DNA of 64,000 nt from an uncultured Candidatus Saccharibacteria bacterium (lineage in GTDB: Bacteria > Patescibacteriota > Minisyncoccia > RBG-13-40-8-A): assembly GCA_965231075.1 (NCBI GenBank), contig OZ246412.1, positions 321,587-385,586 on the forward strand, in the 5' to 3' direction. Every line of letters begins with the position of its first letter. Within the stretch, counting starts at the first letter, position 1. A program made the position numbers and the translations under genes. Of this stretch, positions 2,443 through 28,707 are shown piece by piece. The notes beneath the pieces were generated by a model. It saw only the letters and a program-made list of their open reading frames with translations, was not told the origin of the DNA and ran no database searches.

Positions 2443-2469
2443 TAGGTCAATACCAAAAGGAGGTATCGC

Positions 2470-3219: not shown

Positions 3220-3325
3220 GTATTTAGAACGTTTAGGGGAAATCGCTTCGGCGATCTCCCCTATTTTTTTCTCGACCTTACGTTGGGATTTTGTCTTTAG
3301 ATTTTTGGCATGATAGAATCAATTT

Positions 3326-4666: not shown

Positions 4667-4691
4667 CAAATATCGCATATTATGATAAAAT
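4663..4691 (+). promoter_or_regulatory. Sigma-70 promoter TTGACA-N17-TAAAAT for the small membrane protein cassette
   Basis: TTGACA 4663-4668, TAAAAT 4686-4691, followed by GAGGAGGT SD and TTG start at 4724. Confidence 0.55.
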
Positions 4692-4723
4692 AAAGTAGTT
4701 CGAATCAATTAGAGGAGGTTCGT

Positions 4724-5017
4724 TTGATCGAACAACTGTGTGCTGTTTTCTCTGTTTCGGACGTGGTGGCGCAAGTGATCGGGTCGGTCAAGACCTGGAT
4801 CATCAAGATGGATCGGGCGTTCTTGCGTAAGGACCCCTTTCTACTGCTGACGGCGGTATCCTATGTCGTCGCGATGGCTATCGGGACGATGACGGGGCTG
4901 CTGTTCAGCAACGAACTCACCCAATTCATCGTCTTCTTATCGGCGTGGTTGGTGGTGTTCGTGGGCTTGGGCGTCACCTATTGGTTTTTCTTCGCCAAGC
5001 TGGCGCGGAAAAACTAG
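4724..5017 (+). CDS. Small (97 aa) GC-rich integral membrane protein of unknown function; alien cassette
   Basis: Three predicted TM helices, G/C-ending codon bias, perfect SD, TTG start, own terminator. Confidence 0.55.
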   Translation: MIEQLCAVFSVSDVVAQVIGSVKTWIIKMDRAFLRKDPFLLLTAVSYVVAMAIGTMTGLLFSNELTQFIVFLSAWLVVFVGLGVTYWFFFAKLARKN

Positions 5018-5030
5018 ACAGAGAGCGGAC

Positions 5031-5068
5031 AAAGGCCGAGTGGGAAACCACTCGGCCTATTTTATTTT
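5031..5068 (+). terminator. Rho-independent terminator of the 4724-5017 cassette
   Basis: AGGCCGAGTGG-GAAA-CCACTCGGCCT hairpin followed by TATTTTATTTT. Confidence 0.7.
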
Positions 5069-5085
5069 GCTAACGCATATTTAAA

Positions 5086-6396: not shown

Positions 6397-6398
6397 AT

Positions 6399-7424: not shown

Positions 7425-7440
7425 TTATTATATCATAAAC

Positions 7441-7470
7441 AAAAAAATCCCGTAATGTGGGATTTTTAAG
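7441..7470. terminator. Bidirectional hairpin terminator between tRNA-Ala and the channel gene
   Basis: AATCCCGTAATGTGGGATT flanked by A7 and T5. Confidence 0.55.
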
Positions 7471-7544
7471 TGGTGGACCATAGGAGAATCGAACTCCTGT
7501 CCTCCGGATGCAAACCGGGAGCTCTACCACTAAGCTAATGGCCC
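7471..7544 (-). tRNA. tRNA-Ala (anticodon UGC), CCA encoded
   Basis: GGGCCAT acceptor with G3:U70, anticodon loop TTTGCAT, T-arm GGAGTTCGATTCTCC, 3' CCA. Confidence 0.85.
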
Positions 7545-7556
7545 TCAAATAAAATT

Positions 7557-7630
7557 TGCGCGTGCATGGACTCGAACCATGGACCTCGTCATTATCAGTG
7601 ACGCGCTCTAACCGCCTGAGCTACACGCGC
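7557..7630 (-). tRNA. tRNA-Ile (anticodon GAU), no encoded CCA
   Basis: GCGCGTGTAGCTCAGGCGGTTAGAGCGCGTCACTGATAATGACGAGGTCCATGGTTCGAGTCCATGCACGCGC; the classic rRNA spacer tRNA. Confidence 0.85.
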
Positions 7631-7638
7631 GAAAAATC

Positions 7639-7797
7639 TTAGGCCTTGCCTAAAATTTTAAACATTCCTGTTCCACAAACTGGACAAACACCTTTTAATG
7701 CTCTTCTGTCCCCTCCCTTTCCTTTCATTTTAACTTCTTTGGCGTCTTTCATTTCTTGTTTTGCTCTACACTTAACACAATATGCAATATCTGCCAT
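7639..7797 (-). CDS. 52-aa C4 zinc-ribbon protein encoded between 16S and tRNA-Ile (MADIAYCVKCRAKQEMKDAKEVKMKGKGGDRRALKGVCPVCGTGMFKILGKA)
   Basis: Below the 60-aa ORF-track cutoff; found by hand translation. CxxC...CxxC, highly basic. Own promoter TTGATT-N18-TATAAT (about 7841-7870, minus strand). Stop lies 4 nt from tRNA-Ile. Confidence 0.5.
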   Translation of the reverse strand: MADIAYCVKCRAKQEMKDAKEVKMKGKGGDRRALKGVCPVCGTGMFKILGKA

Positions 7798-7870
7798 AAA
7801 AATAAAATTTATTAATTATTAATAAACTTACTTTATTATACAGCTAAAATAATAATAAAATCAAGCACAA

Positions 7871-7906
7871 ATAAAAAAATCGTCTAATAGACGATTTTTT
7901 TATTTC
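7871..7906 (-). terminator. Hairpin terminator downstream of the 16S 3' end
   Basis: AATCGTCTA-AT-AGACGATT followed by T7ATTT on the minus strand (and A-run/T-run on both sides). Confidence 0.55.
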
Positions 7907-8042
7907 GAATTCTTTATGGTTTTCCCGATACTTATTATTTGTTTAGTACAAATAATTAAAAAACTTTTTATGTTACTGCCTTATCGGCAAATAATCGACT
8001 CTTACTTAATAAATTTTATTTACTAAGTAAAAATATTTTCCA

Positions 8043-9503
8043 TCCACAGGTTCCCCTACGGATGCCTTGTTATGACTTCACCCTAGTCACCGAATTTACC
8101 TTAGGACTCTGAAATCAGAGCACGTCAGGTACTCCCGGCTTCTCTGGTGTGACAGGCGGTGAGTACAAAGCTTGAGAACGTATTCACCGCAGCGTAGCTG
8201 ATCTGCGATTACTAGCGATTCCGGCTTCATGGGGTCGAATTGCAGACCCCAATCCGAACTGGGGCCGATTTTGATGAGATTGGCTCCATCTTACGACTTG
8301 GCGACTCATTGTATCGGCCATTGTAGCGCCTGTGTTGCCCAGGGTATCAAAGGGCCATGCTGATTTGGCGTCATCCCTACCTTCCTCCTCGTATCACGAG
8401 GCAGTCTTGTCTGACACTTATAACAGACAACAGGGGTTGCGCTTGTTACCCGAATTAACGGAGCAACTCACGCCACAAGCTGACGACAACCATGCAGCAC
8501 CTGTTCTAGTGTCCTTGTAGAAGACCCGACTTTCATCAGGCTTTCACTAGAATTTCAAACCCTGGTAAGGTTCTCCGCTTACCGTCGAATTAAACCAGAC
8601 GCTCCACCGCTTGTGCAAGCTCCCGTCTATTCCTTTGAGTTTTAGTCTTGCGACCGTACTTCCCAGGCGGAGTACTTAACGCGTTAGCTTCGTCACCTGA
8701 AGGGTCGATACTTCAGACAACTAGTACTCATAGTTTAGGGCGTGGACTACAAGGGTATCTAATCCTTTTTGCTCCCCACGCTTTCGTCTCTCAGGGTCAG
8801 AAATGCACCAGCCAAATGCCTTCGCCTTTGGTATTCCCTAAGGTATCAACGGATTTCACCCCTACTCCTTAAGTTCTATTGGCCTCTCACACTCTCTAGT
8901 CTGACCGTTTCCCCTGCAGTTTCGATGTTGAGCATCGAAATTTAACAGAAGACGTATCAAACGCCCTACAGACGCTTTACGCCCAGTAATTCCGGACAAC
9001 GCTTGGGGTACTCGTATTACCGCTGCTGCTGGCACGAGTTTAGCAACCCCTTATTCATAGAGTACACTCAAAAATTGCTCCTCTATAAAAGTACTTTACA
9101 TCCCGAAGGACTTCTTCATACACGCGGCGTCGCTCCATCAGACTTTCGTCCATTGTGGAAGATTCTCGACTGCAGCCTCCCGTAGGAGTAAGGCCCGTAT
9201 CTCAGTGCCATCGTTGGGGAACACGCTCTCACGCCCCCTACCCGTCATCGCCTTGGTAAGCCATTACCTTACCAACTAGCTGATAGGACGCAGGCCACTC
9301 TCTCACCATCTTATCTTGCGATAAGACTTTACTCTTGCGAGACCATCGGAAATTATCTTGCCTTTCGGCAAGTTATGTCCGAGTCAGAGGGATGTACCTA
9401 CGTATTACTAACTCGTTCGCCATGGGTCTAAACCCATTCGACTTGCATGCCTAATCCACGCCGCCAGCGTTCGTCCTGAGCTAGGATCAAACTCTCAATA
9501 AAG
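8043..9503 (-). rRNA. rrs: 16S rRNA, complete, about 1.46 kb
   Basis: 5' end AGAGTTTGATCCTAGCTCAGGACGAACGCTGGCGG (reverse complement at about 9470-9503). 3' end ...GTCATAACAAGGCATCCGTAGGGGAACCTGTGGATGGA (8043-8080). The 530 loop reads GTGCCAGCAGCAGCGGTAATAC (9014-9035), carrying the C-to-A change in the 515F site reported for Patescibacteria. Confidence 0.9.
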
Positions 9504-9759
9504 ATTCAGAAGTAGATTGGCCGAAACGGCCTGCCTACTTCTGATTGTATCAGAAAAACCATAAAAAATTCGATTCCTGACTAACTCACACAAACTACTG
9601 TAAATTACTTAAACATATTTAATTTATAGTGTACCTGTTTTTGATTAAAAAACAGAGCTCAATTTTTGAACATGGTTCCAAAACTAAACTCTGTTTTAAA
9701 GTACGTTTGTTGTTTTCGCTCTTTTACATAAAAATTATATTAATGATTATGTGCTTACA

Positions 9760-9788
9760 AATATATATCAGAAAAATTCACGTGTCAA
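9760..9788 (-). promoter_or_regulatory. Probable 16S promoter TTGACA-N17-TATATT
   Basis: Minus strand CCTTGACACGTGAATTTTTCTGATATATATT about 260 nt upstream of the mature 16S 5' end. Confidence 0.45.
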
Positions 9789-10405
9789 GGGTTTTTCCTC
9801 CACTCGTTTATTTTTTTGTGATCGCCGGATAAGAGGGTTTTTGGAACGGGCCATTTATTGAAAACTTCTGGTCTAGTGTAAACGGGATAACTGCCTTTGA
9901 TTTCTTCAAGTGATTCGTGTTTTCCTAAAACGCCAGGAATCAAACGACTGACTGCGTCCACAACGATCATCGCTGGAATTTCCCCGCCAGTTAAAACATA
10001 ATCACCAATCGAAACTTCTTCGTCAGCAATATGTTTTGCCACTCTTTCGTCGACTCCTTCGTATCGTCCACAAATCATAATTAAATTATCTAATTTTGAA
10101 AATCTTTTCGCCATCGCTTGATCAAACTTTTTCCCGCGAGTAGAGAAAAGAATTACCTTCGTCTTCGAACTTCGAACCTTCAACTTTTTAACCGCTTTAA
10201 AAATTGGCTCCAGCATCATAACCATTCCCGGCCCTCCACCATACGGCGTATCATCCACGGTCTTTCTTTTGTCGTCCGTAAAATCTCTCAAATTATGAAT
10301 TTTGATATTCACCAATTTCTTTTCCTGCGCACGCTTAATAATGCTCTCATTAAAATAGCTTTGAAATATATCCGGAAATATTGTTATTATATTGAACTTG
10401 ATCAT
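9785..10405 (-). CDS. trmD: tRNA (guanine37-N1)-methyltransferase
   Basis: [13 protein letters not shown] motif, SPOUT-fold length. Downstream of rpsP and the KH protein, as in the canonical operon (rimM is absent). Confidence 0.8.
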
Positions 10406-10577
10406 ATTAATGTATCGGTCCCGCGGAGCGGGATCCCGCTTTGCGGGAGAAAAATTGTAATAATATTGAATTTCATAATCTTATGTCGCACCCCGCAATA
10501 GCGGGGTTGTTTTTCGCTTCGCTCAAAACAAAAACCGCACTAATTATATAGTAGCACGGTTTTCGACAAGTTTCTAT

Positions 10578-10904
10578 TTAAATCTTTAAATCGTCAACGA
10601 CGCTATCAACGTCTCTTCCTTTTGGTTCCACAACTCTGCGGCCACCTTCTGGTTCTTCGATTTTAAGATTGACACGAGCATTGTTCTTGGCACCAACTAT
10701 CCTCAATAAAGTTCGAATAGCTCTTGCAGTTGAACCTCCACGACCGATTAAAGCTCCCATATCTTCTGGGTTAACCTTTAAGGTCAAGAGTACGCCCATT
10801 TCATCAACATTTCTATCAATCTTTATGTCTTTGGGATTGTTAACAATTCCTTCGACTATTGATTCAAGAAATTCCTGATCTTTTGGTTTTGACATGTTCT
10901 TCAA
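10578..10904 (-). CDS. KH-domain RNA-binding protein (YlqC/UPF0109 family)
   Basis: LIGRGGSTARAIRTLL GXXG-loop KH motif. Located between rpsP and trmD. Confidence 0.7.
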   Translation of the reverse strand: MKNMSKPKDQEFLESIVEGIVNNPKDIKIDRNVDEMGVLLTLKVNPEDMGALIGRGGSTARAIRTLLRIVGAKNNARVNLKIEEPEGGRRVVEPKGRDVDSVVDDLKI

Positions 10905-10992
10905 TGTTAAATGAATTACTTTCCTGCGACCTTTTACTTACTATATATGAATAATATTATTTTGATTTAAGGTTGTCAACTCTAACAATGGA

Positions 10993-11418
10993 TTATTTCC
11001 CGACGTTATCAGTCGGGACCCCGACCTCTTCGGGCGTCGGGGCTGTTTTTGTTTCCGTGTCAACAATTACTGGCTCTTCGGTTTTTGGTTCTTCTTTGGG
11101 AGTTTCGGCTATTGCTGTCGGTGCGACTGCTGGTTTTTCTGATTCCGCTTTCTTTTTCGGTTTCCACGCTTTCACTTTTGATTTATCAATAATTTTTTCA
11201 TCAACCAACATATTGTGTATGGTTTCTGAAAGTTGTGCGCCTTTGGAAATCCAATGTAAAATTCTTTCTTTATTAAAACTTTTTTGTTTTTGAACTTTAT
11301 TGTATGAACCTAATAATTCAAGAAATTTTCCTTGTGGTCTAAATGTGTGTTCAACCAAAACAACCCGGAAACTCGGGCTATTCTTTTTTCCAACTTTTTG
11401 TAATCGTATTTTTAACAT
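10993..11418 (-). CDS. rpsP: 30S ribosomal protein S16 with a K/E/P/T-rich C-terminal extension
   Basis: MLKIRLQKVGKKNSPSFRVVLV N-terminus. Promoter TTGTCA-N17-TATATT at 11428-11456 places the transcription start within a few nt of the ATG (leaderless). Confidence 0.85.
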   Translation of the reverse strand: MLKIRLQKVGKKNSPSFRVVLVEHTFRPQGKFLELLGSYNKVQKQKSFNKERILHWISKGAQLSETIHNMLVDEKIIDKSKVKAWKPKKKAESEKPAVAPTAIAETPKEEPKTEEPVIVDTETKTAPTPEEVGVPTDNVGK

Positions 11419-11427
11419 ATTAAAATC

Positions 11428-11456
11428 AATATAACAGATAATTAATTTTGTGACAA
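11428..11456 (-). promoter_or_regulatory. rpsP promoter giving an essentially leaderless mRNA
   Basis: -35 TTGTCA (11451-11456), -10 TATATT (11428-11433), ATG at 11418. Confidence 0.5.
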
Positions 11457-11475
11457 GTCCTACATATTCTCTAGC

Positions 11476-11577
11476 AAAAAATTTGTTTTCACTGAGACAA
11501 TTTCGGAAGCCCCGCCACGCGGGGCTGAGAATTAGCGCGCCTCTGACAATTTGCAGGGGCGACGCGTGTCGACATGG
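11476..11577. repeat. Copy A of a roughly 100-bp structured intergenic element (second copy at 40188-40287)
   Basis: TTTCACTGAGACAATTTCGGAAGCCCCGCCACGCGGGGCTGAGAATTAGCGCGCCTCTGACAATTTGCAGGGGCGACGCGTGTCGACATGG. Two hairpins plus a CGAC(A/G)CGTGTCG palindrome. About 85% identical to copy B, with compensatory stem changes. Confidence 0.7.
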
Positions 11578-11593
11578 AAATAAATTTTGAGCG

Positions 11594-12334
11594 TTATTCC
11601 CAACACTTCTTTTTTAGCGCCTTTCTGGCTGCGTCTTCCTGTGCTGCTTGTTTTGAAGGACCCTCGCCCTCAGCAACCAAACTATCTTTTAGATAAACCC
11701 CGACAACAAATTTTTTGCAATGATCGGGGCCTTCTTCGTTTCTTACTTGATAACTCGGCGTAATTCCTACCTTCCCCTGGGCTTGTTCTTGGAAATAGCT
11801 TTTTGGATCAACGTAAAGCTTTTCATCTAAAACTCTTTTTAATTCACAAACAATATTTTTTAAAATAAATTCTTCGGCTTTGTCATATCCTCGATCTAAA
11901 TAAATTGCCCCGATTGTTGCTTCTAGTGTGTTGGCCAAAATAAATTGTCTGGCGCGACCATTGTCTTGTGATTCGCCCTTAGATAAAATTAGATATTCAT
12001 TAAATTCTAATTTTGAAGCAACCTCAGAAAGCATTTTTGAATTCACCAATGCTGCTCTCCAGGCAGTTAAATCCCCTTCCGGATTTTTGGGGTATTTATT
12101 AAACAGATAATTTGTCACTACTAATTCCATTACTGCATCACCCAAAAACTCTAATCTTTCGTTTTGCTCTAGTTTGCAACCCGGATTTTCATTTAAATAA
12201 GAGCGGTGCACGAATGCCTGCTCTAATAATTTCTTGTTCTTAAATTTTATTTTAAGATTCTTTTCTAATTTTTCAAAATCTTTATTTATCATTGGTTTTC
12301 TCCATTTCTCTAAAAATTGTTCCCAAAACGCCAT
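11594..12334 (-). CDS. rnc: Ribonuclease III
   Basis: [15 protein letters not shown] signature and C-terminal dsRBD. The 5' end overlaps the nusB 3' end; the true start may be the internal Met at about 12292. Confidence 0.85.
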
Positions 12335-12719
12335 TTACAAATCTGCCTGAACTTTCTCCGCCATAACCTTTGGCCAATTCAATTGCTTCATTAATTGCGA
12401 CTTTGGGTGGAACCTGTTGTTTGTCGCCAAATAATAATTCGTAAATTCCAATTCTTAAAACGTTTCTATCAACAATTGTAATTTGAGCTAACGGCCATTC
12501 TGGGGCTGATTTAATAATAATTTCATCAATCTGTGCTTGATGCTTTAAAACCCCGTGCGCTAGATCATTTATAAATGCTTCTTCGTTGACACCCGGACCA
12601 AACTCTTCGGCATTTCTTTTTAATGCTTCATCGATATTAATCTCTTTTTTGTCTTTATTAAAATCTATCTCGTAAAGAGACTGAAGAACTATTGACCTTG
12701 CTATGTGTCTTGATGACAT
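12282..12719 (-). CDS. nusB: Transcription antitermination factor NusB
   Basis: All-helical 145 aa; N-terminal [17 protein letters not shown] and other NusB family motifs. Confidence 0.75.
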
Positions 12720-12721
12720 AA

Positions 12722-13006
12722 TTACTTTTTAGACATCGTTTCTAAATCTAACGGTTTTGATTCTTTGGCTTCGTGTTCGTGTTCCTTTAACTCTTTCTCT
12801 TTCTTCTTTTTGTCTTTCTTTTCGAGTTTGGCTAGAACATTGATCACTTCTTTTCCGTCATAAAAACCGCAAAAAGCACAAACATGATGTGGTAGAACTG
12901 GTTCTCCACACTTTGAACAACTCGCCACAGTTCTCTTTTTTAGTTTAAGATGTGATCTGCGTCGGTTGCGTCTTGATTTTGTATGTCTTTGTCTTGGTAT
13001 TGGCAT
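12722..13006 (-). CDS. rpmF: 50S ribosomal protein L32 with a Lys/Glu-rich C-terminal extension
   Basis: [19 protein letters not shown]...[25 protein letters not shown] zinc ribbon. Confidence 0.85.
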
Positions 13007-13053
13007 ATTGGTTTTATAATATCAGAAAAAATAAATTAATGCAAATCGACATT

Positions 13054-13082
13054 TTGCCTATATCTATTTTTAGTGTTAAAAT
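13054..13082 (+). promoter_or_regulatory. dnaE promoter TTGCCT-N17-TAAAAT; the -10 lies 6 nt before the ATG (leaderless)
   Basis: -35 13054-13059, -10 13077-13082, ATG 13089. Confidence 0.45.
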
Positions 13083-13088
13083 TATTGC

Positions 13089-16000
13089 ATGGAAGAAAAA
13101 TTTACTCACCTACATGTCCATACCCATTATTCTCTTTTAGATGGACTAGCAAAAATTGACGAATTAGTGGAAAAAGCCAAGGCGACCGGAATGGATTCCT
13201 TGGCTATTACTGACCATGGCGCAATGTATGGTGTGGTTGAGTTTTATAAAAAAGCCACTGCCGCTGGAATTAAGCCAATTATTGGCGTAGAAACCTATAT
13301 TACTCCCGGAAGTCGATTCGATAAAACCATGGGCAAAGGCGATGTCCGACATCATTTGATTTTATTGGCAAGAAATAAAACTGGTTATCACAATTTAATT
13401 AAATTAGTAACCAAGTCATATCTTGAGGGATTTTATTATAAACCACGCATTGATTGGGAAATTTTAAAAGAATATCACGAAGGATTAATTGCATTAAGTG
13501 CTTGCCCACAAGGCGAAGTACCTTCGGCACTAGCATCTGATGATTTAGCGAAAGCAAAAAAAATTGCATTAGAATATTCTAAACTTTTCGGCAAGGATCA
13601 TTTCTATTTGGAGATTATGGACCACCCCAATGATTTAGAACAAGTAAGAATTAATGAGAAATTAATTCAATTAGCCAAAGAAACTAGCTTGCCACTAGTT
13701 GCCACTAATGATGTCCATTATTTAAATAAAGAGGACGCTGAAGTGCACGATGTCTTATTGTGTGTACAAATGGTTAGAACTGTCGACGAAAAAGACAGGA
13801 TGTCTATGACCAATGAAGATTATTCTTTAAAATCGCCCGATGAAATGATTCGCGCATTTAGGAATGTTCCCGAGGCTATTGCCAATACTCAAAAAATTGC
13901 CGAAATGTGCAATATTGAATTAGAGCTTGACAAAACAGAACTCCCACATTTTCCTCTTCCTGACGACCAAACTGCTGACGGATATCTAAAAGAACTATGC
14001 GAACAAGGAGTTGTTAAAAGATATCCTGTTTCGTTGTTTAAATCTGACGAGGGCAAGCAATATATTGAACAAGCCAAAAAACAATTAGAATACGAATTAA
14101 GCATAATTAAAAAAACTGGCTTTGCTTCCTATTTTTTGATTGTGCAAGATCTTGTTAATTGGGCAAAAAATCAAGGTATTGTTGTCGGTCCGGGTCGAGG
14201 TTCGGCTGCCGGTTCAATTGTTTCATATCTTCTTAATATTACCAATGTTGATCCTTTAAAATATAAACTTCTTTTTGAAAGATTTTTGAACCCTGAAAGA
14301 ATTTCTATGCCTGATATTGATATGGACTTTGCCGATATTAGACGCGATGAAGTTGTTGCCTACGTAAGCAAAAAATATGGAGCTGATCATGTTGCTCAAA
14401 TTATAACCTTTGGAACTATGGCTGCACGCGCAGCTATTCGTGACGCCGGCAGAGCACTAGGATATCCCTATGCTTTTTGTGACCAACTTTCTAAAATGAT
14501 TCCTTTTGGCTCTTCACTAAAAGAAGCTCTCGAGAGAGTGCCTGAACTTTCACAAGCCTATGATACTGACGATCAAACCAAAAAATTGCTTGATATCGCC
14601 AAAAAACTTGAGGGCGTTGCCAGGCACGCCTCCACTCATGCTTGTGGAATTGTAATCACAAAAAATTCTCTTGATTTTTATACACCGCGCCAATTTGCTC
14701 CACAAGACGAAAATGCGATTGTCACTCAATATGAAATGCATTCTATTGAATCTTTGGGGCTTTTAAAAATGGACTTTCTGGGATTAAAGAACTTAACCAC
14801 TATTGAAACCGCCCTGAATTTAATTGAAAGATTGCGTGGAATTAAAATTAATATCGATAATATTCCACTCGATGATCAAAAAGTTTTTGATTTGTTTAAA
14901 AAAGCAAACACCGTGGGAGTGTTTCAACTTGAATCATCGGGCATGAGAAAGTATTTACAAAAATTAAAGCCCAACGACCTAGAAGACATTATCGCCATGG
15001 TTGCTCTGTATCGACCCGGCCCAATGGAGCTTATTCCTGATTATATTGCTAGAAAACATGGCGAAAAAAAAGTCAAATATGCTCATCCTAAGCTAGAACC
15101 AATTTTAAAGAATACTTACGGCATTACGGTTTATCAAGAACAGTTAATGCAAATTGCTAAAGATTTGGCTGGGTTTAGCTTGTCAGAAGCCGATGTTTTA
15201 AGAAAGGCCGTAGGAAAGAAAATCAGAAAATTGCTTGAACAACAGGCCGATAAAATGATTGAAGGAATGATTAAAAATGGAGTCGACAAAGAAACCGCTC
15301 AAGGAATTTGGGATTCCATTGAACCCTTTGCTCAATATGGATTTAATCGTTCACATGCAACTTGTTATGCCTTAATCGCCTATCAAACCGCTTACCTAAA
15401 AGCAAATTACCCCGAAGAATTTATTACGGCTCTAATGCAAGCAGATCAGAAAGATTTAGATAGAATTAATATTCTTGTTGACGAAGCCAAAAAAATGAAA
15501 ATTCAGGTTTTACCCCCGGACGTTAATGAAAGTTTTGACAATTTTACACTCGTCCCACCTTCATCTATCCGTTTTGGCATGGCCGCTGTAAAAAATGTTG
15601 GCCACAACGTTGTGGCGGGAATTGTTGCCGAAAGAAAACAAAACGGAGAATACAAAAACATGGCTGATTTTCTTATTCGTTTGTCCCCCAAAGCCGGACA
15701 ATCCGCCATTATTAATAAAAAGTCTTTAGAAAGCTTAATTCGTGCGGGTGCGTTTGATGCCCTAGGCTCAAGAAAAGAATTACTAGATAAGATCGAAGAT
15801 TTGTTAGAGTTTTCCAAGGAATCGAAAAAGACCAAAAATCTCGGACAAACTAGTTTGTTTGGCGAAGAACCTGCGCCACAAAAAAATCAATTTTTATTTA
15901 CTAACGGTAATGGCGAAAAAAGAAAACTACTCCAAGAAGAAATCCAGTGGGAAAAAGATCTTCTGGGAATGTATATTTCCGACCATCCCTTAAATGATCA

Positions 16001-16316
16001 TAAGGAGTTTTTAAGACAGCGCACAATTCAAATTAAAGACTTGATAAAAGAGAAAAAAGATAGTAAAGTGAAAGTTGCGGGAGTAATTATAAAAATTACT
16101 AAATTTATTACAAAGTCGGGCAAACCGATGTTGTTTGTGAAAATCGAGGATTTAACTGCAACCGTAGAAATATTGGTTTTCGCCACAATTTTAGAAAAAA
16201 ATCCCACGATTTGGCAAGAAGGAAAAATTGTTATGGTTACCGGTCGCTTAACCGACAAAGACGACCAATTAAAAATTCTCTGTGACGATGCAGAACAATT
16301 AATAAGTCAAAGATAA
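13089..16316 (+). CDS. dnaE: DNA polymerase III alpha subunit
   Basis: PHP domain HLHVHTHYSLLDG, polymerase core, OB fold. 1075 aa. Confidence 0.9.
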   Translation: MEEKFTHLHVHTHYSLLDGLAKIDELVEKAKATGMDSLAITDHGAMYGVVEFYKKATAAGIKPIIGVETYITPGSRFDKTMGKGDVRHHLILLARNKTGYHNLIKLVTKSYLEGFYYKPRIDWEILKEYHEGLIALSACPQGEVPSALASDDLAKAKKIALEYSKLFGKDHFYLEIMDHPNDLEQVRINEKLIQLAKETSLPLVATNDVHYLNKEDAEVHDVLLCVQMVRTVDEKDRMSMTNEDYSLKSPDEMIRAFRNVPEAIANTQKIAEMCNIELELDKTELPHFPLPDDQTADGYLKELCEQGVVKRYPVSLFKSDEGKQYIEQAKKQLEYELSIIKKTGFASYFLIVQDLVNWAKNQGIVVGPGRGSAAGSIVSYLLNITNVDPLKYKLLFERFLNPERISMPDIDMDFADIRRDEVVAYVSKKYGADHVAQIITFGTMAARAAIRDAGRALGYPYAFCDQLSKMIPFGSSLKEALERVPELSQAYDTDDQTKKLLDIAKKLEGVARHASTHACGIVITKNSLDFYTPRQFAPQDENAIVTQYEMHSIESLGLLKMDFLGLKNLTTIETALNLIERLRGIKINIDNIPLDDQKVFDLFKKANTVGVFQLESSGMRKYLQKLKPNDLEDIIAMVALYRPGPMELIPDYIARKHGEKKVKYAHPKLEPILKNTYGITVYQEQLMQIAKDLAGFSLSEADVLRKAVGKKIRKLLEQQADKMIEGMIKNGVDKETAQGIWDSIEPFAQYGFNRSHATCYALIAYQTAYLKANYPEEFITALMQADQKDLDRINILVDEAKKMKIQVLPPDVNESFDNFTLVPPSSIRFGMAAVKNVGHNVVAGIVAERKQNGEYKNMADFLIRLSPKAGQSAIINKKSLESLIRAGAFDALGSRKELLDKIEDLLEFSKESKKTKNLGQTSLFGEEPAPQKNQFLFTNGNGEKRKLLQEEIQWEKDLLGMYISDHPLNDHKEFLRQRTIQIKDLIKEKKDSKVKVAGVIIKITKFITKSGKPMLFVKIEDLTATVEILVFATILEKNPTIWQEGKIVMVTGRLTDKDDQLKILCDDAEQLISQR

Positions 16317-16320
16317 TTTT

Positions 16321-18066
16321 ATGGAAAAACAAATTGAATTAATCAGACATTCACTAAGCCATGTGATGGCGAGTGCAATAAAAGACATTTTTAAAGATGT
16401 TAAATTTGGCATTGGTCCGATAATCGAAAATGGTTTTTATTACGACTTAGATATTAAGCAATCAATCACTCCTGAAGATTTACCCAAGATTGAAGCTCGG
16501 ATGAAAGAAATAATCAAACAAAACATTGAATTTAAGAAAAGCTTAAAAACGAAAGCCGATGCAAACAAGGTTTTTAAAGACCAACCATATAAATTAGAAC
16601 TGATTAAGGAATTGAAGTCGGCAAAAGCAACAATTTATGTCTCTGGTGAATTTACAGATCTCTGTGCTGGCCCCCACGTCAAATCAACCAAAGAAATCGA
16701 CCCAGAAGCATTTAAGCTCACCAAAATCGCTGGAGCGTACTGGAAAGGTAGCGAAAAAAATAAAATGCTACAAAGAATTTATGGAGTCGCATTCGAATCA
16801 AAACAAGAATTAGAAAATTACCTCAAACAACAAGAAGAGGCAGAAAAACGAGATCATCGTAAGCTTGGTAAGGATTTGGATCTGTTTACCGTTGATGATT
16901 ATATTGGACCAGGGTTGGTGTTGTGGCACCCTAAACTTTCCGTGGTTAGAGAAGAAATTGAATTATACTGGAGAAAGCAACACCGAAAGAAAGGATATCA
17001 ATATGTTTATACTCCCCACGTTGGACTTTCAAATTTATGGGAAAAGTCGGGACACCTAGAAAATTTCAGCGGAATGATGTATCCTCCAATGCAGATGTCT
17101 TTAAAAGATAAAACTGAAAATGTGGCATATTACACTAAACCGATGAATTGTCCGTTTCATATTAGAATTTATAAGTCCAAACCACGAAGTTATAAAGAAT
17201 TACCAATTCGCTGGTGCGAACTTGGTAGCGTCTACAGATATGAAGAGTCCGGTGTTTTGCATGGCATGCTTAGGGTAAGGGGTTTCACACAAGATGATGC
17301 ACATATTATTTGTACCGAAGATCAATTTGTTGAGGAGGTAAACAAAATTTTTGATTTCGCAATCGAAATTAACAAGGCTTTCGGGTTTGATAAATTAAAT
17401 GTTTATCTTTCTGTTCGTGATCTTAAAAACAAGGAAGCAAAATACATTAAGAATGAGAAAATTTGGAAATTCGCCGAACAAACCCTAGAAGACATTCTCC
17501 AAAAAAGAAAAATTATATATCAAAAAGATATTGGCGGGGCAAAATTTTACGGTCCATCAATCGATTTAAAGGCAGTTGATTCTATGGGTCGTGAATGGCA
17601 AGGCACAACAATTCAATTGGACATGAACTTACCTACTCGTTTTGGAATGACTTATATTGGTCCGGATGGCAAAGAACACACTCCGATTATGCTTCACCGA
17701 ACATTGCTTGGCTCAATGGAAAGATTTGTTGGTACGCTGATTGAACATTATGCTGGAGCATTTCCGTTTTGGTTGGCACCGGTACAAATTACAATTTTAC
17801 CCGTCGGGAAAAACCATATAGATTTTGCCAAGAAAATTCAAAACAAGTTTCAAGAACATAGTTTTCGAGTTGAGGTTGATGATTCTGACGATACTGTGGG
17901 CAAAAAAATCCGTGAAGCCGAAATGCAAAAAATCCCCTACATTATTGTGGTCGGAGACAAAGAAATGAATTCTAGTGAATTGGCCGTTCGCTCTCGAGGC
18001 CAGAAAGACATTGAAACAATTAATATTGATGAGTTTATCGAAAAAATTAAAACAGAGTTGAAATGA
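16321..18066 (+). CDS. thrS: Threonyl-tRNA synthetase, short form lacking the N-terminal TGS domain
   Basis: Class II motifs, HRKLGKDLDLF, anticodon-binding C-terminus. Confidence 0.85.
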   Translation: MEKQIELIRHSLSHVMASAIKDIFKDVKFGIGPIIENGFYYDLDIKQSITPEDLPKIEARMKEIIKQNIEFKKSLKTKADANKVFKDQPYKLELIKELKSAKATIYVSGEFTDLCAGPHVKSTKEIDPEAFKLTKIAGAYWKGSEKNKMLQRIYGVAFESKQELENYLKQQEEAEKRDHRKLGKDLDLFTVDDYIGPGLVLWHPKLSVVREEIELYWRKQHRKKGYQYVYTPHVGLSNLWEKSGHLENFSGMMYPPMQMSLKDKTENVAYYTKPMNCPFHIRIYKSKPRSYKELPIRWCELGSVYRYEESGVLHGMLRVRGFTQDDAHIICTEDQFVEEVNKIFDFAIEINKAFGFDKLNVYLSVRDLKNKEAKYIKNEKIWKFAEQTLEDILQKRKIIYQKDIGGAKFYGPSIDLKAVDSMGREWQGTTIQLDMNLPTRFGMTYIGPDGKEHTPIMLHRTLLGSMERFVGTLIEHYAGAFPFWLAPVQITILPVGKNHIDFAKKIQNKFQEHSFRVEVDDSDDTVGKKIREAEMQKIPYIIVVGDKEMNSSELAVRSRGQKDIETINIDEFIEKIKTELK

Positions 18067-19967
18067 AGCAATATCATTTAAAAGTTTTCGGATGCCAAAT
18101 GAACGAAAGCGATTCTCAAAGAATCGCTTCGTTTTTAGAACAACAAAATTATCGGACTACAGATAAGATGGAAAACGCAGACCTAATTGTAATCACTGCT
18201 TGCTCTGTGCGACAAAGTGCAATTGATAGGGTTTTTGGTTTAAACAGAAAATTCAGACAATTAAAAGCGAAAAAAATATTGACTGGGTGCGTAATTAAGA
18301 CAGATAAACCCAAGTTCTTAAAATTCTTTGATGAAGTTTTATCTATTGATGAATTATTGGGGAAAAATTATTTAGAGCTACAACCGAAAAATTCAAACAT
18401 TAAATCGGCTTACGTGCCAATAATGACCGGGTGTAATAATTTTTGCACTTACTGTGCCGTCCCCTACACTCGTGGAAGAGAGGTTTCTAGGCCAGCAAAA
18501 AATATCATTACAGAAATAGTTAAACTAATCAAAAATGGTTGCAAAGAAATAATTTTATTAGGACAGAATGTTAATTCCTACAAAGGCGATAAAATTAATT
18601 TTCCCAAACTATTAAAAAGGATTTCTGATATTAAGGGTGATTTTACAATTAAATTCCTCACTTCTCACCCCAAAGATTTTTCTGAAGAACTAATTGATGT
18701 AATCGCTGGTTCTCCTAAAATTAGCCGAGAGATTCACTTGCCAGTGCAAAGTGGCGACAACAACATTCTCGAAAAAATGAATCGTAAATATACGCGCGAA
18801 CACTATATTAACTTAATTAAAAAAATAAAAAATAAAATTCCTGACGTAAGATTTACCACTGATGTTATTGTAGGTTTTCCTGGCGAAACAAAAAAACAAT
18901 TTGAAAATACGGTTAAATTATTTAAAGAAATAAATTTTGATTTGGCCTATATTAATAAATATTCAACCCGCCAAGGCACTGCTGCGGCAAAATTAGAAGA
19001 TAATGTTTCGCTTATTGAGAAAAAACGCAGATGGGAAGTTCTAGAAAAACTTGTAAATCAGAAGCCCAAGATAATTGTCGTCCTCGGTCCTACCGCCTCT
19101 GGTAAATCTAATTTAGCGGTAGAAATTGCTAAAAAATTTAACGGAGAGATAATTTCCGCTGATTCAAGACAAGTTTACAAGGGAATGGATATTGGAACAG
19201 GGAAAATTACCAAAAAAGAAATGTCTGGTGTCCCCCATTATTTATTAGACATTGCTAGTCCTCAGAAACAATTTAGTGTTGGAGAATATAAAAAATTGGC
19301 ACAAAAAGCAATAAATAAAATTATCTCTAAGAACAAAGTACCAATCATTTGTGGAGGTACGGGGTTTTATATCCAAGCCATAACTGAAAATTTGGATATT
19401 CCTGAAGTGGCTCCGGACTGGAAACTGAGAAAACAATTAGAAAAAAGGACAACTGAAAAATTATTAGAACAATTAAAAAAACTTGATCCAGACAGAGCAA
19501 GCAGTATTGATGTTAAAAATCGTCGAAGATTAATTAGAGCAATTGAAATTGTTCTAAAAACAGGGAGGCCGGTGCCACCATTAAATTATGCCGCCCGAGG
19601 CGGACCAGCCGTAGGTTGGGATGTTTTATATATCGGCATTAAAAAATCAATTCCCGAATTAAAAAAATTAATTCATAAACGATTAATTAAACGAATTAAC
19701 GCAGGAATGATTGGAGAAATAAAAAAACTCCACGATCGAGGAGTTAATTGGAATCGTTTAGATGATTTTGGCCTAGAATATCGCTATGTAGCACGTTATC
19801 TGCAAAGAATATTGACCAAAGAGCAAATGATTGAACAATTAGAACAGCAAATTATCAACTTCGCCAAACGTCAAATGACCTGGTTTAAAAAATATCCAGG
19901 CAAAAAAATAAACTGGGTCTTAGGCCCAGTTCAAGCTAAAAATCTCATAAAAAGATTTCTAGAATAA
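18063..19967 (+). CDS. Fusion protein: MiaB-like radical-SAM methylthiotransferase (N-terminal, about 1-330) plus tRNA dimethylallyltransferase MiaA (C-terminal, about 335-634)
   Basis: N-terminus HLKVFGCQMNESDSQ plus CNNFCTYCAVPYTRG radical-SAM motif. The TRAM domain is replaced by IIVVLGPTASGKSNLAVEIAKKFNGEIISADSRQVYKGMDIGTGK, the MiaA P-loop. One uninterrupted 634-codon ORF. Confidence 0.75.
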   Translation: MKQYHLKVFGCQMNESDSQRIASFLEQQNYRTTDKMENADLIVITACSVRQSAIDRVFGLNRKFRQLKAKKILTGCVIKTDKPKFLKFFDEVLSIDELLGKNYLELQPKNSNIKSAYVPIMTGCNNFCTYCAVPYTRGREVSRPAKNIITEIVKLIKNGCKEIILLGQNVNSYKGDKINFPKLLKRISDIKGDFTIKFLTSHPKDFSEELIDVIAGSPKISREIHLPVQSGDNNILEKMNRKYTREHYINLIKKIKNKIPDVRFTTDVIVGFPGETKKQFENTVKLFKEINFDLAYINKYSTRQGTAAAKLEDNVSLIEKKRRWEVLEKLVNQKPKIIVVLGPTASGKSNLAVEIAKKFNGEIISADSRQVYKGMDIGTGKITKKEMSGVPHYLLDIASPQKQFSVGEYKKLAQKAINKIISKNKVPIICGGTGFYIQAITENLDIPEVAPDWKLRKQLEKRTTEKLLEQLKKLDPDRASSIDVKNRRRLIRAIEIVLKTGRPVPPLNYAARGGPAVGWDVLYIGIKKSIPELKKLIHKRLIKRINAGMIGEIKKLHDRGVNWNRLDDFGLEYRYVARYLQRILTKEQMIEQLEQQIINFAKRQMTWFKKYPGKKINWVLGPVQAKNLIKRFLE

Positions 19968-19969
19968 CC

Positions 19970-20167
19970 TTATTCTTCTAGTTTTTTTAGTTTTATCCGT
20001 AATTCTGCTAATTCGTTTAGTCGTGGATCTGGATATTTGTGCTGAACGCCAAGTTTCTTAGACATTTTTTCGTCTGCACTTATTGCTTCTTGCAATTTTT
20101 CTATTTCGTCAATTATTCGATTAATCTCCTCTATCCTTGATAACGAGGGAAATCCTTCTTTCTTCAT
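19970..20167 (-). CDS. Small coiled-coil protein, hypothetical
   Basis: 65-aa ORF immediately downstream of gatB; no recognisable GatC motifs. Confidence 0.35.
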   Translation of the reverse strand: MKKEGFPSLSRIEEINRIIDEIEKLQEAISADEKMSKKLGVQHKYPDPRLNELAELRIKLKKLEE

Positions 20168-20173
20168 ATAGAT

Positions 20174-21595
20174 TTATTTTAATTTTCTAATAATTATTTC
20201 TGCCGCAATATTTGGATTGGCCTTGCCTTTTGATTCTTTCATTGCTAAGCCAATTAAAAACTGTAACGCAGTCCCCTTGCCTTTTTTGTAATCCTCAACT
20301 GGTTGAGGGTTATTTTTTATTATCTTATCGATGATCTCATCCATTTCTCCTGTATCGGTCATTTGTTTTAAATTTTTTAACTCCACAATTTGTGATGGAT
20401 CGCCTCCAGTTCTAAACATTTCTTTTAAAACTTCTTGCGCTCCACTCGAAGAAACGTCCCCAATAAATGTCATATAAATGAGTTCGGCAAAGTTTTCTGG
20501 TGTAATTTTTATCTCTCCAGTTATTGGCACAAATTTAGGGAATTCAGTAATAATATAATTTGCGCTCAACACAATTAATCGATCAATGTCAGTTTTAATC
20601 TTCCCACCTTCTAACCATCCCTTTAATTCACTTACGGTTTGTTCAAAAAATTCTGATAAATATTTAGATCCCACCAAAACGTCGGCATTTTGTTCCGACA
20701 ACTTGTATTCTTGCGTAAATCTTTCTTTCCTTGCAAATGGTAATTCGGGAATTTCTTGTTTTAATTTTTCTATGTCTTCTCTGCTAAAATTCATTGGTGG
20801 CAAGTCTGGTTCTGGAAAATATCGATAATCATCCGAAGTTTCTTTGATTCTTTGAGAAAAGGTTTCTCCTTTGGCATCGTTCCATCCACGCGTTTCGTGA
20901 ATAACTTTTTGGTCTTCTTCTAAAATCGCTTGCTGTCTAATAATTTCAAATTCAATCGCCTTTTCTACGGATCTAAATGAATTAAGATTTTTTACCTCAA
21001 CTTTTGTGCCCATGTTTAAAGAAATGTTTGCTTCCACGCGCATTTGTCCTTTTTCCATATCGGCATCAGAAATTCCTAAATATTTAAAAATTAATTGCAA
21101 GTCCTGCGCAAATTTCTTTGCTTGTTGAGCATTATGAATGTCTGGCTCCGTAACCAATTCCATCAAAGGAACGCCTGCACGATTATAATCAACTAAAGAA
21201 TAGTCCCCTTTATCGTGAATTGATTTACCAACATCTTCTTCTAAATGAATTCTTCTGATTCTAATATTGTCTAGTTTTCCTTCATAACACAATGGTGATT
21301 CGAATTGTGTAATTTGGTATCCCTTCGGCAAATCGGGATAAAAATAATTCTTTCTCTCGAACCAAGTTTTTTCGTTAATTTTACAATTTAAGGCCAATCC
21401 TGCTTTAATCACATCGTGTGCTGCTTCTTCATTAATGACTGGCATCGAACCCGGTTGCGCAGTACAAACTGGGCAAATATTAACATTGGGATCCTTTTGT
21501 AAAGGATCATTCAAACAAGAACAAAACATTTTCGTTTTGGTCTTTAATTCCACGTGAATTTCTAATCCAATTGTCGGCTCATATTTATTTGCCAT
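20174..21595 (-). CDS. gatB: Asp-tRNA(Asn)/Glu-tRNA(Gln) amidotransferase subunit B
   Basis: N-terminus EPTIGLEIHVELKTKTKMFCSC plus a full-length GatB core. Confidence 0.85.
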   Translation of the reverse strand: MANKYEPTIGLEIHVELKTKTKMFCSCLNDPLQKDPNVNICPVCTAQPGSMPVINEEAAHDVIKAGLALNCKINEKTWFERKNYFYPDLPKGYQITQFESPLCYEGKLDNIRIRRIHLEEDVGKSIHDKGDYSLVDYNRAGVPLMELVTEPDIHNAQQAKKFAQDLQLIFKYLGISDADMEKGQMRVEANISLNMGTKVEVKNLNSFRSVEKAIEFEIIRQQAILEEDQKVIHETRGWNDAKGETFSQRIKETSDDYRYFPEPDLPPMNFSREDIEKLKQEIPELPFARKERFTQEYKLSEQNADVLVGSKYLSEFFEQTVSELKGWLEGGKIKTDIDRLIVLSANYIITEFPKFVPITGEIKITPENFAELIYMTFIGDVSSSGAQEVLKEMFRTGGDPSQIVELKNLKQMTDTGEMDEIIDKIIKNNPQPVEDYKKGKGTALQFLIGLAMKESKGKANPNIAAEIIIRKLK

Positions 21596-23744: not shown

Positions 23745-23773
23745 ATAATATCAAATTAAATTAATAATATCAA
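23745..23773 (-). promoter_or_regulatory. Cassette promoter TTGATA-N17-TATTAT, followed by a 5'-UTR hairpin
   Basis: -35 at 23768-23773, -10 at 23745-23750. The hairpin AAAATCTCAT-TGATAAG-ATGAGATTTT (23716-23745) sits in the leader. The promoter overlaps the 3' end of trxB. Confidence 0.5.
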
Positions 23774-24684
23774 GCTTTATTTTTTAAATAATCCGTCGCT
23801 GCTAACATTGCTTTTGCGCCTTCACCACAAGCAATTGTAATTTGTTCATATTTAATATCAGTAATATCGCCAGCAGCAAATAGTCCCGGCGTTTTTGTGT
23901 TGTTGTTTTTATCAATAACGATTTCGCCAACCTTATTTAATTCAACCCACTTTTCGGCAAATCCAACTTTCGCCGACATGCCCACAGAAATAAATACTCC
24001 ACCAACATTAATTTCCGAATCCTCGCCAGTTTTTCTGTCTTCATAAACTAAGCTCTCGACAAATTTTGTCCCCTTAATCTCCTTAACCGAAACATTGGTG
24101 ATAAATTCTACAATTCCACTTTGTGCTAATTTCTCTTTAGTTATTGGATCTCCTTTCATTTCTTCAAAAAATTCTAAAATGTAAACTTTCTTGGCATATT
24201 TAATCATGTCTAATGCAACTCCAAACCCAGCATTACCACCTCCGATTACTGCCACATCTTTGTCTTTAAACATTGGCGCATCACAAGTAGAACAAATACT
24301 TACCCCTTTACCTTTAAATTGATCTTCTCCGGGAATATTTAATGATCGAGGAATCTTGCCGGTTGCAATCACCACTGTCCTGGCTTCGTATTTTTCTTCG
24401 CCATCATTAATTATAAAATTATCACCGTTTTTATCTAGATCAATAACTTCTTTGTTTTCTTTAATTTCTATTTCAAAGTTCTTCAAATGTTCGGTCATTT
24501 GCTTCATTAAATCCATTCCGGAAATTTTCTTAATTCCTGGCCAATTTTCAATTTCAATCGCTTTAGTAACCTGACCACCCCATTCTTTGGTGATTAAAAG
24601 TGTTTTTAATTTTTTTCTGGCAGCATAAATTCCCGCCGTAATTCCAGCCGGTCCCCCGCCGATAATTATTACATCGTAAATCAT
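23770..24684 (-). CDS. trxB: Thioredoxin reductase
   Basis: VIIIGGGPAGITAGIYAAR FAD motif and CSTCDAP redox-active site. Confidence 0.85.
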   Translation of the reverse strand: MIYDVIIIGGGPAGITAGIYAARKKLKTLLITKEWGGQVTKAIEIENWPGIKKISGMDLMKQMTEHLKNFEIEIKENKEVIDLDKNGDNFIINDGEEKYEARTVVIATGKIPRSLNIPGEDQFKGKGVSICSTCDAPMFKDKDVAVIGGGNAGFGVALDMIKYAKKVYILEFFEEMKGDPITKEKLAQSGIVEFITNVSVKEIKGTKFVESLVYEDRKTGEDSEINVGGVFISVGMSAKVGFAEKWVELNKVGEIVIDKNNNTKTPGLFAAGDITDIKYEQITIACGEGAKAMLAATDYLKNKA

Positions 24685-27516: not shown

Positions 27517-28707
27517 TTATCTGCCCGATATTTTTCTTAATTTTTCAATCACTTTTGGTAAAATTTTTACAAATTGATCTATTTCTGCGATAGTTGTATG
27601 CTTTCCCATGCTTATTCTAAGACTTGAGTGCGCATCTAATTCAATTAATCCCATGGCAATCAAAACATGTGATGGCAAGAGTGCCGTAGAAGTACAAGCC
27701 GAACCAGTTGAAACTGCGATTCCTTCTTGATCAAGGGCAATAACCAAACTTTCCCCCTCCACACCCAAAAAACTAAAATTAGCAATATTCGGTAATTGCT
27801 CTTCTGGCTTTCGAGAACCATTTAATTTACTTCCCTGTACATTGTTTAATACTCCTTTAACTAATCTATCTTTCAATTTTAACATCTCGGCAATCTCGGT
27901 TTTGGTGTGCTTAATTTGAGAGACCGCGGCACCCATGCCAACTATTCCGGCAACATTTTCTGTTCCTGCTCTTAATTTCCATTCCTGATCACCGCCAGAG
28001 ATTAATGGCATTATTGGCGTTCCTTCTTTAATATACAAAACCCCCACCCCCTTTGGTCCATAAATTTTATGGCCCGACAATGTAAGTAAGTGTACCCCCA
28101 AATTATCAACATCCAAATCCAACCAGTTAGCGGCCTGTACGGCATCAGTATGAAAATAGATTGGACGTTCTTCGACTTTATTAATCTCAGCAACCATCTT
28201 GCCGATTTTTTTAATCGATTGGATTGAACCAACTTCATTATTGGCATACATAATCGATATTAAATCAGTTTCTGGGACAATTTCTGCTTTTAAATCGTCT
28301 AAATTAATTAGTCCATCTGGACCTACCGGCAAATAAACAACTCTCACCCCCTCTTTTTCTAGTTCTTTAAAAACCTCTAAAACAGCCTTGTGTTCTATTT
28401 TTGTGGTGATTACATGGATTCTATCGCCAGCTTGTTTTTTGCGTCTAATGGCCTTAATTACGCCCCTAATAGCTAAATTGTCACTCTCTGATGCTGAGCC
28501 CGTAAAAATAACTTCTGTCGGTTTACAATTCAAAAATTTAGCCACTTTTTCTCTAGCGTCATCAATCGCTTCGCTTGCCTCTTGTCCGAATTTATGAATC
28601 GATGATGGGTTGCCATATTTGTTTTCCAAATACGGCATCATTTTCTTTAAAACAGAAGCGTCAAGAGGGGTTGTGGCGGCATAATCTAAATAGATTTTTT
28701 TGTTCAT
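27517..28707 (-). CDS. Cysteine desulfurase (NifS/IscS family)
   Basis: PLP-binding SGHKIYGPKGVGVLY and active-site loop SGSACTS. Confidence 0.8.
   Translation of the reverse strand: MNKKIYLDYAATTPLDASVLKKMMPYLENKYGNPSSIHKFGQEASEAIDDAREKVAKFLNCKPTEVIFTGSASESDNLAIRGVIKAIRRKKQAGDRIHVITTKIEHKAVLEVFKELEKEGVRVVYLPVGPDGLINLDDLKAEIVPETDLISIMYANNEVGSIQSIKKIGKMVAEINKVEERPIYFHTDAVQAANWLDLDVDNLGVHLLTLSGHKIYGPKGVGVLYIKEGTPIMPLISGGDQEWKLRAGTENVAGIVGMGAAVSQIKHTKTEIAEMLKLKDRLVKGVLNNVQGSKLNGSRKPEEQLPNIANFSFLGVEGESLVIALDQEGIAVSTGSACTSTALLPSHVLIAMGLIELDAHSSLRISMGKHTTIAEIDQFVKILPKVIEKLRKISGR

Follow-up and report, generated by a model that had tools for sequence, protein, structure and literature searches.

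The window analysed here, a 64,000-nt stretch of contig OZ246412.1 from an uncultured Candidatus Saccharibacteria bacterium, carries a single gene that joins a MiaB methylthiotransferase (MTTase) in frame to a complete MiaA tRNA dimethylallyltransferase. MiaA and MiaB are textbook consecutive tRNA-modification enzymes: MiaA makes N6-isopentenyladenosine at position 37 of the tRNA (i6A37) from dimethylallyl diphosphate (DMAPP), and MiaB makes the 2-methylthio derivative (ms2i6A37) using two [4Fe-4S] clusters and S-adenosylmethionine (SAM). To our knowledge, the two have always been studied as separate proteins. The TRAM domain, one of the three domains that define MTTases, is missing from the fused protein. 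Conserved in a Patescibacteria (Parcubacteria/Paceibacteria-type) lineage, the fusion is, judging from its domains and catalytic residues, probably a bifunctional enzyme that carries out two-step ms2i6A synthesis at A37 of UNN-reading tRNAs.

The open reading frame (ORF) listing of the window gives one uninterrupted ORF from 18063 to 19967 on the forward strand, which starts at an ATG and encodes 634 amino acids before the stop codon. A sequence-only reading of this DNA had taken the ORF to be an in-frame MiaB/MiaA fusion with its junction at about 19060-19080, and the ORF listing, Pfam and NCBIfam all agree with it, placing the junction at aa 335/336 (nt ~19065-19070). When the Pfam comparison suggested in that reading was run, UPF0004 (PF00919; aa 4-91, E 9e-20), Radical_SAM (PF04055; aa 118-286, E 2e-30) and IPPT (PF01715; aa 370-610, E 1e-69, profile positions 1-242 of 243) were matched, while TRAM (PF01938) gave no Pfam match in the fusion protein even at E<=1; the same TRAM model does score on a control MiaB (L009). 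The NCBIfam equivalog model for MiaB, TIGR01574, scored 361.7 bits (cutoff 355.3) with an alignment that stops at about position 370 of the 437 in the profile, and the model for MiaA, TIGR00174, scored 253.4 bits (cutoff 148.65) over aa 337-618, profile positions 1-282 of 288. The MiaB part thus spans aa 1-335 and the MiaA part aa 336-634, with a link of 2-3 residues between them and a sequence that reads ...EKKRRWEVLEKLVNQK up to the boundary and PKIIVVLGPTASGKS... beyond it. Since the first position of the MiaA profile lies two residues past the end of the MiaB core, no room is left for a frameshifted TRAM. TRAM-containing relatives carry ~65-85 extra residues at this point, and the alignment shows the fusion with a clean gap of TRAM size there. 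We accordingly ruled out a frameshift or hidden TRAM of about 65-85 aa at the junction, which has no spare sequence and is in frame and conserved. No second miaA, miaB or TRAM gene was found within the window by tblastn.

The fusion is not an assembly artefact but real and evolutionarily conserved. An independent Logan assembly of run SRR12133404 contains an 11,189-bp contig (L081) that is 100% identical to window positions 9250-20438 and encodes the same 634-aa protein. We further searched 5.8 billion proteins from NCBI, JGI, ENA and Logan with the full-length query, clustering at 90% identity. All 120 clusters returned had both MiaB and MiaA domains, at 53-82% identity to the query, and those fused clusters with an organism name belonged to Patescibacteria, Pacebacteria or Nealsonbacteria. 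A TRAM-sized segment was present in four of them, with 112-123 residues from the YSxRxGT motif to the P-loop; among the other 116, this distance was 40-54 residues in all 87 that could be measured for both motifs. The sequence-only reading had proposed looking for the same fusion in relatives as a check; more than 110 clusters have it in TRAM-less form. Across 108 aligned TRAM-less fusions the linker varied by 0-12 extra residues, always in frame and often Pro-rich, as is typical of a real interdomain linker. We considered whether an assembly or sequencing indel at the junction might have joined two ordinary neighbouring genes, as many relatives have miaB and miaA as separate genes overlapping by a few bases, where a one-base error could mimic a fusion. 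The chance of this is negligible: the independent assembly is identical in sequence, relatives at 78-82% identity from other samples are joined in frame in the same way, linker length varies in frame in over 100 clusters, and the junction has neither a stop codon nor an alternative start context.

Both halves retain the residues expected of working enzymes, as read from the alignment of the 108 TRAM-less fusion sequences. In the MiaB half, the radical-SAM cysteines C124, C128 and C131 and the auxiliary-cluster cysteines C47 and C76 were conserved in 108/108, and C11 was Cys in all 75 sequences covering that position. In the MiaA half, G342, K348, D367, S368, Q370, Y372, R489 and R492 were invariant (108/108) and T344 was present in 105. 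The halves were aligned by phmmer to Bacteroides uniformis MiaB (7mjv-7mjz) and to the MiaA structures 3d3q, 2qgn and 2zm5, respectively. An AlphaFold2 model of the fusion had a mean pLDDT (predicted local distance difference test) of 86.1. In Foldseek comparisons its N-terminal half superimposed on MiaB with a template modelling (TM) score of ~0.67 of the target, whose TRAM had no counterpart, and its C-terminal half on the E. coli MiaA-tRNA complex 3foz with a TM score of 0.85 over 308 columns; modelled helices at aa 453-500 correspond to the MiaA helical insertion domain, the anticodon stem-loop clamp. The MiaA half also has an insert, AARGGPAVG at aa 508-516 (19584-19610), that is specific to the query, modelled at pLDDT <50 and not found in the aligned relatives. 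Since the catalytic residues of both halves are kept across the 108 homologues, a bifunctional ms2i6A37 enzyme is the natural reading.

Could one half no longer be a working enzyme, or could the MTTase half act on another substrate, for example in MtaB-like synthesis of the 2-methylthio derivative of N6-threonylcarbamoyladenosine (t6A), or on a different target altogether? The missing TRAM and the marginal MiaB equivalog score would fit such an idea, and the MtaB and RimO models score as well, at 262 and 209 bits. Yet these rival MTTase subfamily models fall below their cutoffs (MtaB 262.3 bits and RimO 208.6, both against a cutoff of 357), and TIGR01574 is clearly the best-scoring subfamily model for the N-terminal half (362 versus 262 bits). 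None of the cluster ligands or MiaA catalytic residues varies among the 108 sequences, lasting linkage or fusion with miaA would be expected of an i6A-dependent MiaB, and the N6-substituent is recognised outside TRAM (PMC2952846). We consider a dead half or a changed substrate highly improbable.

Several other observations count against the overall account of the fusion, its bifunctional role and its origin. The TIGR01574 score barely exceeds its cutoff (361.7 against 355.3), a narrow margin attributable to the absence of TRAM. No UNN-reading tRNA of this genome lies within the 64-kb window, and no DMAPP-pathway gene is among its annotated ORFs; the missing DMAPP gene is uninformative because the genome, at ~626 kb or more, extends far beyond the 64 kb of the window. 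The predicted TM score (pTM) of the AlphaFold2 model is 0.63, with no confident fixed interface between the halves. In the neighbour-joining (NJ) trees described below, strict clade bootstraps are weak, at 4-18%. On the substrate side, related loci yielded three tRNAs that read UNN codons (Leu-CAA, Trp-CCA and Tyr-GTA), each with A36-A37-A38, the MiaA substrate determinant.

From what is known of the two families, the C-terminal MiaA module would transfer the dimethylallyl group of DMAPP to N6 of A37, and the N-terminal MiaB module would then add the methylthio group at C2 using two [4Fe-4S] clusters and SAM. As both modules enclose the same anticodon loop, the tRNA must presumably be released from the first site before it can bind to the second. 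A tether of just 2-14 residues would keep the second site at a high local concentration, favouring a hand-off by proximity rather than a tunnel, and the fusion would fix the two activities at a 1:1 ratio. With a pTM of 0.63, the model does not place the halves confidently relative to each other and does not support proximity hand-off structurally; the channelling of tRNA suggested in the sequence-only reading is likewise putative.

We also surveyed miaB and miaA loci in GTDB representative genomes, classifying each by TRAM and by fusion; counts refer to the matches listed. Four states occurred: TRAM-containing miaB with a separate miaA, TRAM-containing fusions, TRAM-less miaB with a separate miaA, and TRAM-less fusions. 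In the split TRAM-less pairs, miaB has a true stop right past the core helix, and miaA has its own ATG about nine codons before the P-loop. Some of these pairs overlap, by an ATGA in L028, L031 and L050 and by 11 nt in L075, and others lie 80-1150 nt apart (L012, L049, L020, L004 and L022). Pfam confirmed the absence of TRAM in L012, L013, L020, L028, L064 and L070. In at least four loci, including that of a complete Berkelbacteria genome (L064), no miaA was found within ~6 kb of a TRAM-less miaB. The L064 locus (Berkelbacteria GW2011_GWE1_39_12, CP011213.1 691380-704411) encodes a 400-aa TRAM-less MiaB with UPF0004 and Radical_SAM only, indicating that such proteins also occur beyond Parcubacteria-type lineages and away from miaA. 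Elsewhere among the listed loci, miaA as a rule comes after miaB on the same strand, and the stop codon of the one often overlaps the start codon of the other.

Clustering of the closest relatives at 50% identity gave ~20 fused clusters, of which ~14 had a 64-86 residue TRAM-sized linker and ~6 were TRAM-less, in addition to ~20 clusters of standalone TRAM-less MiaB. When only the MiaB core was used as the query, the proteins listed comprised 81 standalone TRAM-less ones and 31 carrying a tail the size of TRAM. This list is biased towards short proteins, as the 100%-identical P0001 and close fused relatives are absent from it, probably because candidate selection works against targets of much greater length, and we used it for existence, not for frequency; full-length and core-only searches skew architecture frequencies in opposite directions. 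Since TRAM-less MiaB can be split from miaA or distant from it, and since some fusions keep TRAM, TRAM loss and fusion are separable events. By these sequence comparisons, TRAM-less MiaB is a clade-wide trait in Patescibacteria that is independent of fusion. A conserved tryptophan, W324 ('KKRRW'), was considered as a marker compensating for TRAM loss and ruled out, W and E both being found at this position in TRAM-less and TRAM-containing proteins.

The closest split relatives of the fusion come from five loci (L082-L086) with the order dnaE, thrS, TRAM-less miaB, ..., miaA, ftsH, gatB, the same neighbourhood as in the window, and with 0.5-0.6 kb separating the miaB gene from the miaA gene. 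Among standalone TRAM-less MiaBs, the nearest (P0270, P0272 and P0276), which are encoded in this neighbourhood, are 62-68% identical to the query core. Over both halves, the L082 pair is 66.7% identical to the query, compared to 61.5% for the best TRAM-containing form, and of the 120 fused sequences sampled, 105 are further from the query than this pair. Four of the five loci have an opposite-strand ORF of 156-174 aa between the miaB and miaA genes. In L082, L083 and L086, its several hydrophobic stretches suggest a small membrane protein, and this membrane-protein-like character and weak Sm_multidrug_ex similarity ruled it out as a detached TRAM. The intervening ORF may mark either an insert by which a fusion was split or DNA whose deletion gave rise to one. 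In the window itself, a 65-aa ORF (19970-20167, reverse strand) separates the fusion from gatB, in the place that ftsH takes between miaA and gatB in the syntenic relatives. It is also called in contig L081 and is predicted to encode a charged, helical product, for which no family match was found.

NJ trees were built on the shared MiaB-core and MiaA columns. The architectural states are interspersed, with Fitch parsimony giving ~19 fused/split changes and ~12 TRAM changes, and the query falls within a large TRAM-less clade. When the tree was built without the syntenic split pairs, TRAM-containing fusions were among the query's nearest different relatives in 96 of 100 replicates. Once L082-L086 were added, the split TRAM-less pairs fell within the TRAM-less clade and alone formed the nearest non-fused relatives of the query in 66 of 80 bootstrap replicates, with the TRAM-containing fusions P0107 and P0109 as the next group outside. 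The first NJ tree had suggested an order from adjacent genes via a TRAM-containing fusion to TRAM loss. We dropped this order in view of the low bootstraps (4-18%), a sample biased towards fusions because a full-length query ranks fusions first, and the nearest position of split TRAM-less forms once these pairs were added. The comparison indicates that TRAM was lost at the level of the clade, in which fused and split forms coexist; given the weakly supported NJ trees, the change may have gone in either direction, by fusion or by fission. With miaB and miaA conserved in this order, and their stop and start codons often overlapping, a small indel or deletion can readily join them, and such events would fuse, and probably also split, the adjacent genes repeatedly. 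As TRAM is lost in fused and split forms alike, covalent fusion is not what makes it dispensable.

These results bear on the proposal in the sequence-only reading that MiaA replaces TRAM. TRAM is indeed absent and MiaA starts where it would be, but the claim that MiaA took its place finds no support in this form, given that split TRAM-less MiaBs and TRAM-containing fusions exist. A functional version of the idea is that MiaA, either fused or as a non-covalent partner, stands in for the TRAM clamp and docks the tRNA, so that TRAM-less MiaB would depend on MiaA. It is consistent with MiaA beginning exactly at the expected TRAM start, with TRAM-less miaB usually adjoining or overlapping miaA, and with TRAM-containing fusions as the next sister group, which fits a loss of TRAM after the two proteins had become associated. 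According to domain swaps, i6A and t6A are told apart by parts of the enzyme other than TRAM, and TRAM may serve as an RNA clamp without specificity (PMC2952846), a generic clamp that might be replaced; in crystal structures of MiaB, the tRNA is contacted by all three domains, as summarised in PMC10702137. However, close syntenic relatives keep a separate TRAM-less MiaB ~0.5 kb from miaA, and at least four TRAM-less miaB loci, that of the complete Berkelbacteria genome among them, have no miaA within ~6 kb. Furthermore, the same anticodon loop is bound by both enzymes (3foz and 7mjv), such that MiaA would presumably have to release the loop before MiaB could act on A37 of the same tRNA, and the AlphaFold2 model shows no confident interface. 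We therefore regard MiaA as an unlikely substitute for TRAM.

A more far-reaching possibility, which we put forward as speculation and consider doubtful, is that MiaB of this clade lost TRAM because it works only in a complex with MiaA, covalent where fused and non-covalent where split, in which MiaA would recruit the tRNA and pass the isopentenylated loop to the MiaB core. If true, this 'ms2i6A synthase' holoenzyme would be the first physical coupling of two A37 modification steps, and the first MTTase with substrate docking outsourced to the upstream enzyme.

Compared to known systems, the fusion shares with canonical MiaB (Bacteroides uniformis, 7MJV-7MJZ; TIGR01574) the three-Cys MTTase N-domain, the CxxxCxxC radical-SAM core and the same fold, at 36-38% identity over the Foldseek alignments and with a score that passes the equivalog cutoff, but it has no C-terminal TRAM (the profile match ends at ~370 of 437) and its core continues into MiaA. 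With canonical MiaA (E. coli 3FOZ/2ZM5; S. epidermidis 3D3Q; TIGR00174) it shares a full-length match, the P-loop, DSxQxY and the helical insertion domain, whereas its MiaA lacks a free N-terminus and is joined to the last MiaB-core helix by 2-3 residues. The TRAM-containing Patescibacteria fusions (P0078, P0107, P0109 and P0120; ~14 clusters at 50% identity) have the same enzymes in the same domain order and are 58-62% identical to the query over the shared MiaB-core and MiaA columns (46-57% by BLAST), but they keep a TRAM-sized segment of 64-86 residues between core and MiaA. Split TRAM-less pairs (L082-L086; L013, L028, L031, L050 and L075) have the same TRAM-less core, at 62-68% identity, and the same partner enzyme; they differ in being two polypeptides whose genes overlap or lie apart, sometimes with an opposite-strand, putative membrane-protein gene between them. 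Fusing consecutive pathway enzymes is a common evolutionary theme, and MnmC likewise carries out two consecutive steps on one tRNA nucleoside in one polypeptide, although its folds and chemistry are unrelated and there is no homology. We found no description of a MiaB-MiaA fusion or a TRAM-less MiaB in the Candidate Phyla Radiation/Patescibacteria in the full-text literature, subscription-only papers being outside its scope. Automatic annotation already holds such fusions under the name MiaA, MiaB or both, and a single name hides half of the function.

Table. Coordinates of the fusion gene and its parts in the window, and of the ORF separating miaB from miaA in split relatives (locus coordinates).
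Feature	Position	Strand	Evidence
Whole TRAM-less miaB-miaA fusion ORF	18063..19967	+	ORF listing, Pfam, NCBIfam; identical in independent assembly
ATGA overlap of the fusion start codon with the TGA stop of upstream thrS	18063..18066	+	ORF listing
MTTase N-terminal domain UPF0004, aa 4-91; C11, C47, C76 as auxiliary [4Fe-4S] ligands	18072..18335	+	Pfam, alignment
Radical-SAM core, aa 118-286	18414..18920	+	Pfam; Foldseek matches MiaB structures 7mjz, 7mjv-y
CxxxCxxC radical-SAM cluster motif, C124, C128, C131	18432..18455	+	Alignment, 108/108 each
Final helix of MiaB core, aa 317-331, EKKRRWEVLEKL...; leads into TRAM in canonical MiaB	19011..19055	+	Alignment, AlphaFold2 model
Junction, minimal linker, aa 332-337, VNQKPK	19056..19073	+	Alignment
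Complete MiaA (tRNA dimethylallyltransferase) module, aa 336-634; helical insertion domain aa ~446-500	19068..19964	+	Pfam, NCBIfam, phmmer, AlphaFold2 model
MiaA P-loop GPTASGKS, aa 342-349	19086..19109	+	Alignment
MiaA DSRQVY motif with catalytic Asp, aa 367-372	19161..19178	+	phmmer, alignment
Intervening ORF, L082-L086 group	L082:5034-5504, L083:1917-2441, L086:2955-3425	-	Translation, weak Sm_multidrug_ex similarity

In the wider window, the ATGA overlap between thrS and the fusion suggests translational coupling. The 16S rRNA gene (8028..9502, reverse strand) has a 3' end (8028-8060) that reads ...GGAACCTGTGGATGGAAAATATTTTT, and the canonical TCACCTCCTTA tail with the anti-Shine-Dalgarno sequence CCUCC is absent from it. 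Shine-Dalgarno-like 4-mers occur upstream of 7 of 46 long ORFs against a background of 7.7%. That translation here proceeds without Shine-Dalgarno pairing, as noted from the sequence earlier, is borne out by the missing CCUCC and the rarity of such motifs; the special importance for A37 modification that the sequence-only reading drew from this is speculative. The rRNA operon (1-9502, reverse strand) is interrupted: 16S, tRNA-Ile (7557-7630) and tRNA-Ala (7471-7544) are followed by ~7 kb of protein genes before the 23S start at 383, and these genes encode a solute-binding protein, two Mur ligases, a TPM-domain protein, an ArsP_2-like exporter and an MS-channel protein.

About 8 kb upstream of the fusion lies a trmD-like gene (tRNA_m1G_MT, m1G37 methyltransferase; 9785-10405, reverse strand; annotated from contig L081), in a block with rpsP, a KH-domain protein, RNase III, nusB and rpmF, which places a second enzyme acting on tRNA position 37 near the fusion. 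A class-V aminotransferase (Aminotran_5, a type that includes cysteine desulfurases; 27517-28707, reverse strand) and a thioredoxin-reductase-like flavoprotein (23770-24684, reverse strand) are also encoded, and might provide the MiaB half with sulfur, Fe-S clusters and reducing power. Further along the reverse strand are two ORFs resembling type-IV-secretion coupling proteins (TrwB/TraG-like; 35547-37994 and 45574-47118), one with a treble-clef zinc finger, and five consecutive ORFs of 176-597 aa (56851-62212) that gave no Pfam match.

Taken together, the hundreds of TRAM-less MiaB sequences and the four states, with or without TRAM and fused or split, which often occur among close relatives, constitute a natural experiment. 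Two questions are thereby made testable, namely what TRAM contributes to tRNA methylthiolation and whether the A37 enzymes physically cooperate. The fusion would also offer a compact, single-polypeptide ms2i6A synthase for heterologous use. For the biology of genome reduction, it adds a further case of domain loss combined with gene fusion in Patescibacteria.

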